Below, piece after piece: positions 15,647 through 53,331 of a DNA stretch of 53,331 nt; the stretch's first letter is position 1; every line of letters starts with the position of its first letter. This stretch comes from Candidatus Hermodarchaeota archaeon (lineage in GTDB: Archaea > Asgardarchaeota > Hermodarchaeia > Hermodarchaeales > Hermodarchaeaceae): NCBI GenBank assembly GCA_016839805.1, contig JAEOTO010000027.1, positions 1-53,331 of the forward strand. Direction: 5' to 3'. The position numbers were made by a program, and so were the translations under genes. Under the pieces are notes generated by a model that saw only the letters and a program-made list of their open reading frames with translations, ran no database searches and was not told the origin of the DNA.

Positions 15647-15838
15647 CGTGTATCGCCTCGGAATAAGTGAGGCGACTAGTCACAAATCCCGCTTAAAAGT
15701 GTGTAGTTCGCTAGACACCGTCTCTCCCGGTATATGTGTTCAGTCATCTATGACTGCGGAATCCAAGTATATACCTTTATATTTCACCAACGGATATACA
15801 TAACTGGACTGGTCCTAGCGTTACTTAGTGTCGAGTGG

Positions 15839-15945
15839 TCACTGGAGCGGCGAGAAGTGTTGGCACCTCTCCCCCCCTAGAAAACCATTCCCTCTCCGAT
15901 GTTTTCATTATTGTCGAGGTGTCTAATCCGCCAAAGTTCCAGTGA
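15839..15945 (+). repeat. Dispersed structured element, copy 1 (candidate ncRNA with BHB/BHL-like motif)
   Basis: Shares a 26-nt exact core (CCCCCCTAGAAAACCATTCCCTCTCC, 15872-15897) and flanks with 53214-53331. Nested stems are TCACTGGAGC/GTTCCAGTGA, GGCG/CGCC and GGCACCTC/GAGGTGTC. Confidence 0.8.
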
Positions 15946-16026
15946 TTTAACATTTTTTATGCCAGGCACTAGGAATGGAATAAGCAGAGAATCTAGAGTT
16001 ATTTGATTTCACGAATCCAACGAATG

Positions 16027-53106: not shown

Positions 53107-53213
53107 GAAACACCAAACGCCTGTTTGCTTAAACTTTTTTGACCGTAAAATAGTATATAAAGCAGCTCAAACGGAAGTCTTTAAATAACAAAAATGGGCG
53201 CTAATATTGGGAA

Positions 53214-53331
53214 CACTGGGTTTGGCGAAAGATCTTGGCACTTCCCTCCCCCCTAGAAAACCATTCCCTCTCCCCTCCAATTGTGTCCTTAATTGGACAA
53301 ATGTCCTTTTCTTGGAGGTGCCTAATCCGCC
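53214..53331 (+). repeat. Dispersed structured element, copy 2 (runs off the window end)
   Basis: Same 26-nt core at 53248-53273; stem GGCACTTCC/GGAGGTGCC; GGCG-AAA-GAT pairs with ATC-CGCC; TTTAAATA box at 53180-53187. Confidence 0.8.

Follow-up and report, generated by a model that had tools for sequence, protein, structure and literature searches.

The question raised by this locus is what is represented by two intergenic elements of a Hermodarchaeia (Asgard) genome that share an exact pyrimidine-rich core of 26 nt. The window, that is, the whole stretch of DNA that was analysed (53,331 nt), is an entire contig (C15), and the core occurs in it twice, at 15872-15897 and at 53248-53273, both on the + strand; two matches were obtained in 0/100 shuffles. 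A first-pass annotation, made from the letters alone, had proposed that the two elements (copies A and B) belong to an independently transcribed family of structured RNAs, and on re-reading the sequence the flanking motifs, the variable segments of 18 and 40 nt, the TATA-like boxes and the T6 tract were found as described. It had also held that neither element encodes a protein; indeed, no ORF of at least 100 aa covers either copy. Its description lacked the bulge-helix-bulge (BHB), which is the feature that defines the probable maturation of the RNA. The parts of the two copies are the following.

15776..15783, +: TATA box of copy A (TTTATAT or TTTTTAT, 73-77 nt upstream of the central helix in 14/14 orthologs)
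15806..15838, +: presumed 5' leader of copy A, beginning with GGA about 30 nt past the TATA start, with conserved spacing
15839..15848, +: outer stem of copy A, 5' strand (exon side); double-sided changes in 11/11 outer pairs
15849..15855, +: 5' half of the copy A BHB, central helix GGCG and 3-nt bulge AGA; predicted cut 15854/15855
15855..15934, +: 80-nt RNA of copy A, predicted from the BHB geometry and the circular fold to be excised and circularised
15862..15869, +: inner stem of copy A, 5' strand GGCACCTC, partner 15916-15923; 92% of cells paired
15872..15897, +: invariant C/U-rich loop core of copy A (column identity 0.99)
15916..15923, +: inner stem of copy A, 3' strand GAGGTGTC, partner 15862-15869
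15929..15935, +: 3' half of the copy A BHB, central helix CGCC and 3-nt bulge AAA; predicted cut 15934/15935
15936..15945, +: outer stem of copy A, 3' strand, from the fold and pair changes
15953..15958, +: T6 tract, candidate archaeal terminator of copy A, from the sequence
53180..53187, +: TATA box of copy B (TTTAAAT or TTTTAAA, at a constant distance in B orthologs)
53209..53223, +: presumed 5' end of copy B (GGGAAC) and outer-stem 5' strand; partner strand in contig C10
53224..53233, +: 5' half of the copy B BHB, GGCG, bulge AAA and inner helix GAT
53237..53322, +: inner stem of copy B and enclosed loop; 53237-53245 pairs with 53314-53322
within 53237..53322, +: contents of the copy B loop, namely core 53248-53273, extension CCTCCAATTGTGTCC and a lineage-specific insert
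53325..53331, +: 3' half of the copy B BHB, ATC and central CGCC; bulge ATT and outer stem continue in C10
copy B, +: predicted circle of 104 nt, from the BHB geometry (including the C10 sequence) and the circular fold
predicted circle junctions: copy A, AUCCGCCAA joined to AAGUGUUGG; copy B, AUCCGCCAU joined to AGAUCUUGG

Copies, relatives and genomic positions

The window does stop at a contig end within copy B, the case in which more copies had been thought likely, but what lies past this end is no extra copy. The last 127 bases of C15 (53205-53331) recur without a change at the end of contig C10, so that the two contigs can be joined, and C10 carries the 3' bulge and the outer-stem partner strand that copy B lacks in the window. 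Thus, copy B is one locus split by the assembly. The additional copies lie elsewhere in the genome, which harbors four: A (15839), B (53213), C (on contig C42) and the diverged D (on contig C21).

The search of the genome and its relatives with covariance models, a check that had been suggested at the outset, revealed strong covariation in the stems and a number of homologs. Two to five copies are present in each of the 18 other genomes of the same family, adding the paralogs E and F, and exact matches were found in named genomes, among them Candidatus Hermodarchaeum yapensis and other Hermodarchaeota bins. A second family (Baldrarchaeia) possesses a single-copy homolog, which is full length in three genomes and cut by the contig end in a fourth; the protein encoded beside it clusters with proteins labelled Baldrarchaeota. 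The other Asgard genomes yielded no convincing copy in a search that loses weak matches, the weak model matches in other Asgard families lying inside coding sequence or lacking the motif, and a phylum-wide search with a narrowly drawn pattern retrieved the Baldrarchaeia copy as its sole match.

Some further occurrences were recorded on the side. In a third Asgard family, a tentative homolog (genome G066, L189:1297-1393; E 6e-7) lies upstream of a TFB gene; this match has a proper BHB (ACCG/CGGT) and a C/U loop, and it was not found in the two congeners of G066. A sixth paralog type, with the central helix GGAG/CTCC and a different C-rich loop, occurs in G005 (L196:826-947). Paralog E was not found in the assembly analysed here; its loop (L126-L132, L197-L199) is 50 nt long and identical across two genera. 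Lastly, two copies of the second genus (L075, G017:C185; L117, G016:C18) carry the conserved loop on a plain stem without a BHB, followed by repeated GTTGCC..GGCAAC palindromes.

The genomic positions are remarkably stable: copy A adjoins the same acyl-CoA dehydrogenase gene in 13/13 genomes, the acyl-CoA ligase-like gene upstream of copy B is the same in 12/12 genomes and also in the second genus, and every paralog retains its upstream neighbour throughout the genus. The constant neighbours of A and B show vertical inheritance and not mobility. The family, which the first-pass annotation had not recognised, is foreign to Rfam, where no match was obtained at the gathering threshold and only chance matches appeared up to E 10; nor was a description of it found in the literature. 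We regard these elements, as far as sequence comparison can tell, as an undescribed family of Asgard archaeal RNAs encoded by stand-alone genes. The idea of a structured, + strand non-coding family with its own transcription unit is likewise supported by covariation, conserved TATA spacing and fixed genomic positions.

The bulge-helix-bulge and the predicted circle

In an alignment of 42 copies, 88.7% of the proposed structure is paired vs 35-48% in slid registers, and double-sided changes are seen at 21/27 pairs; in a more diverse set of 25 copies, all 25 pairs exhibit them. The copies are related sequences and shuffle counts are therefore not probabilities, but the slid-register controls and the variety of pair types render the structure secure. 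The + strand, previously favoured on the basis of G-U wobbles, is fixed by the 82 G-U vs 29 A-C cells counted in the 42 copies. Copy A alone folds at -40 kcal/mol (z -5.0). Attention had been drawn to the variable insert. The 40-nt insert of copy B does exist, in only 7/13 orthologs, but the more telling contrast is the one between the variable, covarying outer stem (column identity 0.52-0.53) and the invariant loop core (0.99). The pair TCCAATT/AATTGGA, read earlier as the hairpin of the insert, has to be replaced: the hairpin conserved among orthologs is TGTCC/GGACA.

In paralogs A, B and C, a G-rich putative start lies about 30 nt past the TATA box; downstream, the orthologs of copy A mostly possess pyrimidine tracts, the exact T6 being missing. 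Most copies of the family are preceded by a TATA box of their own. Overall, the comparison of orthologs shows each copy as a putative small stand-alone RNA gene in which the TATA box keeps its position, the closing stem covaries, a BHB is present and the loop is invariant.

The BHB is the motif recognised by the archaeal splicing endonuclease (for its definition see PMC7714728). In the elements studied here, the outer stem is followed on the 5' strand by GGCG and a 3-nt bulge, whereas on the 3' strand CGCC is followed by a 3-nt bulge and then by the outer stem; the result is a 4-bp central helix with two 3-nt bulges on opposite strands, each located 3' of its helix strand, and this cleavable polarity holds on the + strand only. 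Four central pairs plus a flanking helix of at least two pairs (hBH, HBh' or hBHBh') are present in 40/42 copies, and both bulges start with A in every copy. Pairing of the central helix reaches 100% in the wider alignment, with all four pairs changed on both sides (GGCG/CGCC, GGCA/TGCC, AGCG/CGCT, AACG/CGTT, TGCG/CGCG and GGTG/CACC). The strict hBHBh' form, which is a requirement of alpha2-type enzymes, is found in only 14/42 copies; the inner flanking helix (h') is missing in all 12 copy-A orthologs, copy A being of the hBH form. The host genome encodes two EndA paralogs (C26, at 78.2 kb, and C22, at 24.2 kb) and RtcB (C22, at 7.2 kb), and the presence of two EndA paralogs is consistent with a broad-specificity, two-subunit splicing endonuclease. 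Enzymes of this type tolerate relaxed motifs (PMC7714728) and are common in Asgard genomes (bioRxiv 10.64898/2026.10.13.758758); in the latter work the BHB class of these copies is scored as canonical, with null rates of 4-8% for tRNA intron gain. When the genome was scanned de novo for BHBs, paralogs D and C came out on top and no convincing new family appeared; A and B were missed because of the filters of the scan and the contig end.

The predicted cut positions are taken from the established EndA geometry, according to which the cut would fall after the second base of each bulge. Excision and circularisation, to 80 nt for copy A and 104 nt for copy B, are likely; the circularisation step is proposed because of the analogy with tRNA introns and with the Thermoproteus SRP RNA (PMC4731332). 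According to the circular-fold prediction, each ligated circle would combine a junction hairpin, which is fixed, with a C/U-rich loop that stays open and in which the C-run and UCCCUCUCC of copy A are unpaired, and the outer stem would be a disposable processing handle. A search for the circle-junction pattern returned two chance matches, in unrelated long metagenome DNA contigs, and none in viral contigs; neither DNA collection returned a genomic copy of the loop, which makes this result uninformative. The plain-stem copies of the second genus suggest that circularisation is not obligatory and that the loop is the functional unit, the circle probably being a device that stabilises it.

Candidate partners of the loop and competing readings

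We propose that the two-subunit tRNA splicing endonuclease very probably cuts both bulges and that RtcB, with good though lesser probability, joins the ends of the inner 80-105 nt to give a stable circle; given cutting and closure, there would be an even chance that the loop is a base-pairing seed for G-rich mRNA sites. The reading as a whole, i.e., a circle pairing with mRNAs, is given a probability of roughly 0.42. The targets of the seed would be regions embedding a Shine-Dalgarno (SD) sequence plus AUG, as well as a conserved site located past an orphan oppB-like gene; the pairing might dampen translation or affect the stability of the mRNA. In paralogs C and E, the precursor has a G-rich 5' end that would fold back and pair with the loop, and this could keep the loop covered until the RNA is spliced. 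More tentatively, the genes might represent a dedicated Asgard family that feeds the tRNA-splicing machinery and yields small regulatory circular RNAs with a leader-masked seed, acting in trans, also at a 3' UTR site.

The host genome uses SD sequences, GGAGG being fivefold enriched ahead of start codons (154 vs 31 expected), and the loop core reads as an anti-AUG plus an anti-SD; paralog D has no CAU ahead of the pyrimidine run. Pairing of the core with SD sequences had been suggested before, and this idea has received modest statistical support: against start-codon windows, the mean of the ten best duplexes is -24.0 vs -20.5 +/- 1.1 for dinucleotide shuffles, with 0/59 shuffles as good, in a test whose seed was picked after inspection and whose ORF calls were crude. 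A conserved start-site target, on the other hand, was not found, and one of the two best matches (C46:58843, a papain-family protease gene) had no DNA match in 18 relatives. The genome-wide duplex scan gave mostly G-rich antisense noise, and the tRNAs and the SRP RNA contain no perfect complement to the loop longer than 7 nt.

A second type of candidate is located behind the oppB-like gene. A complement of 31 nt to the inner-stem strand plus the loop, nearly perfect, lies 4-10 nt past the stop codon in 4/4 genomes of the second genus; in the host genus, shorter or partial complements lie 60-90 nt downstream in three genomes, including the host (C31:4901-4923). The complement is kept better than its downstream flank; about half of the orthologous loci of the host genus lack it. 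The site could also be a retained relic of an RNA gene, or be active on the opposite strand.

The oppB-like locus exhibits some features of its own. The gene encodes an orphan permease with no oppC behind it (G000 C31:4833-4962, which is L144; also L070, L072, L171, L172 and L157), and it combines a conserved palindromic upstream site, GTTCTAAnCCnTAGGATAA, with the 3' region complementary to the RNA loop. In the host genus its 3' UTR opens with the conserved CCTCCAATGCGAACC and a hairpin. The site past the gene can also be read as an ORF of 18 codons (MVLLGGRSA...; L070:1500-1600 and L072:1500-1580), with synonymous changes and the stop kept in two genomes; in G017, a G-run one base shorter shifts its frame.

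Self-pairing was examined in the leaders. In paralog E, the leader is the best-pairing upstream window in 8/8 genomes of the host genus (-20 kcal/mol); paralog C leaders pair with the loop more weakly (mean z -2.1), and the copy A leader displays weak complementarity to its own loop (mean z -0.8). A second motif of the E leader, AACGAGG, pairs with CCUCGUU in the loop, and a compensatory change (AATGAGG/CCTCATT) was observed in G008. The start-window pairing, the oppB complement and the self-pairing of the 5' end are three lines pointing towards base pairing. Overall, the evidence on targets is suggestive, while the sequence-derived evidence for a splicing-type maturation is strong.

Keeping the same biogenesis, it is possible, although rather unlikely, that the circle is a protein decoy or scaffold, whose CUCUCCCC repeats and junction hairpin bind a C/U-specific protein (KH-domain or Lsm). 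The shortest core common to paralogs and classes is only CCUCUCC(C), the several paralogs per genome would fit titration, and a conserved mRNA start-site target is missing; however, about 50 nt are invariant over two genera in paralogs B/C and E, which is beyond the need of one protein site, extended complements exist both in cis and in trans, and Ro60/TROVE was not found in the five (incomplete) genomes searched.

It is unlikely that the working form is linear, with the BHB cut without a stable circle, kept as a binding shape, or cut to give the ligated outer exons as the product. Such a form would account for the BHB-less copies, for the C and E leaders being conserved and complementary to the loop, and for the motif of copy A being only hBH. 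However, the exact 3/4/3 geometry is preserved by compensation in two classes, conservation is concentrated within the predicted intron, and circularisation is known for the SRP RNA of Thermoproteus as well as for introns excised in archaea (PMC4731332).

Quite unlikely is a role of the circle as a 16S rRNA folding chaperone acting on the h21-h23 central domain, as a functional parallel to snR30/U17. The loops of A, B, C and the second genus form their best duplex with the 16S site at about nt 607-655, which is among the top two for D and E; 0/40 shuffles equal the second-genus loop, and the loop contains AAACCAU, which we take to be the snR30 m2 motif. This string occurs 14 times in PMC7601244. 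Nevertheless, the comparison with resampled 16S sequences is borderline (B 10-11/60; core 46-47/60), a 16S from an Asgard genome without a detected copy scores equally, and the site differs between genera whereas the loop is constant; moreover, AAACCAU is missing in D, E and the Baldrarchaeia copy, H/ACA features are absent, and 8-mer counts of rRNA complementarity are not above those of shuffles. As a separate observation, the 16S and 23S rRNA genes of Hermodarchaeia harbor several large insertions, one 16S gene being about 3.6 kb long (L046, L047, L049, L050).

A MITE, which had been named as an outcome that would overturn the RNA interpretation, or another dispersed repeat, or a G-quadruplex or protein site at the DNA level, is largely refuted and very improbable: the copies are dispersed and intergenic, with inverted ends and several G-runs on the minus strand, but these ends differ among paralogs and even orthologs and yet pair, with G-U favoured on the + strand, each paralog keeps its upstream neighbour, copy A has no flanking direct repeat, and viral contigs gave no match. 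Equally improbable and largely refuted is a functional minus strand, on which the A and B loops, taken in reverse complement, give an RBS with a Met-Val-Phe-stop mini-ORF (GGAGAGGGA-AUG-GUU-UUC-UAG), since single-base indels in the A-run shift the frame (3 aa in A/B, 17 in C, 40 in the second genus, 21 in E) and the + strand is the one that shows the TATA boxes, the G-U bias and the BHB polarity.

Relation to known RNAs

The circular RNAs known from archaea are for the most part either by-products, from introns and pre-rRNA, or housekeeping RNAs that have been repaired, the SRP RNA of Thermoproteus being an example; to our knowledge, almost nothing has been described on small regulatory RNAs in Asgard archaea. 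If the reading of a circle pairing with mRNAs were correct, the splicing endonuclease would have been recruited to make new regulators, via multi-paralog genes built only for a small circle, and this would represent a prokaryotic class of purpose-made regulatory circular RNA in close relatives of eukaryotes. The exact junction sequences, together with an in vitro assay, make the circle directly testable.

Several known classes were considered and rejected. ARAGORN detected no tRNA (intron-containing, split or permuted) in the window and none in the doubled circles of A-C at a relaxed threshold; the doubled circle of D gave a weak antisense call only. A C box (RUGAUGA) occurs in no circle and the lone CUGA of C and D lies inside a stem, which excludes a C/D box sRNA; an H/ACA RNA or snR30 would not fit the lack of tandem GA/AG pairs and of a conserved ACA. 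A Y RNA was discarded, TROVE not being found in five incomplete genomes and Rfam giving no match, and so was a permuted SRP RNA, with no Rfam match and a canonical SRP RNA in 5/5 genomes, including the host.

Regarding the proposed function, the Staphylococcus RNAs RsaE and RNAIII mask ribosome binding sites (RBS) through C-rich loops. The RBS-masking sRNA162 of Methanosarcina mazei (PMC3510493) also resembles the Asgard loop in possessing an unpaired C/U-rich seed directed against the SD that is more conserved than the stems; in contrast to the Asgard RNA, these three are linear and unspliced, and the Asgard targets are candidates only. The likeness to snR30/U17 (PMC7601244) is limited to AAACCAU, a short string, and to the central domain of the small-subunit rRNA as a possible place of pairing, whereas H/ACA boxes and pocket are absent, only part of the family has the motif and the loop shows no change that would compensate for those in the rRNA.

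As for the biogenesis, the closest parallel appears to be the permuted SRP RNA of Thermoproteus tenax, which is cut by EndA and ligated to a circle (Plagens et al. 2015, PMC4731332). In both cases a stand-alone gene has a TATA box, and its leader and trailer pair into a BHB, the cutting and circularisation of the T. tenax RNA being predicted here for the Asgard one; in T. tenax the junction turns into a hairpin loop, and the same is predicted for the Asgard circles. The latter differ in being 80-105 nt long vs about 300, in being multi-paralog, in having an open C/U loop as the conserved part and in the absence of SRP features. Archaeal tRNA introns, such as the tRNA-Trp intron of H. volcanii with its C/D guide, and the processing stems of pre-16S/23S rRNA (PMC7714728) share with them the same 3/4/3 motif and polarity; these substrates set free their inner part, which can be circular, and the outer stem is needed for its pairing and not for its sequence. 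In the Asgard RNA, however, the exons would form a hairpin of 10-14 bp and no tRNA, and what they enclose is not an rRNA or a C/D guide. Finally, the Asgard gene seems to exist only for its "intron".
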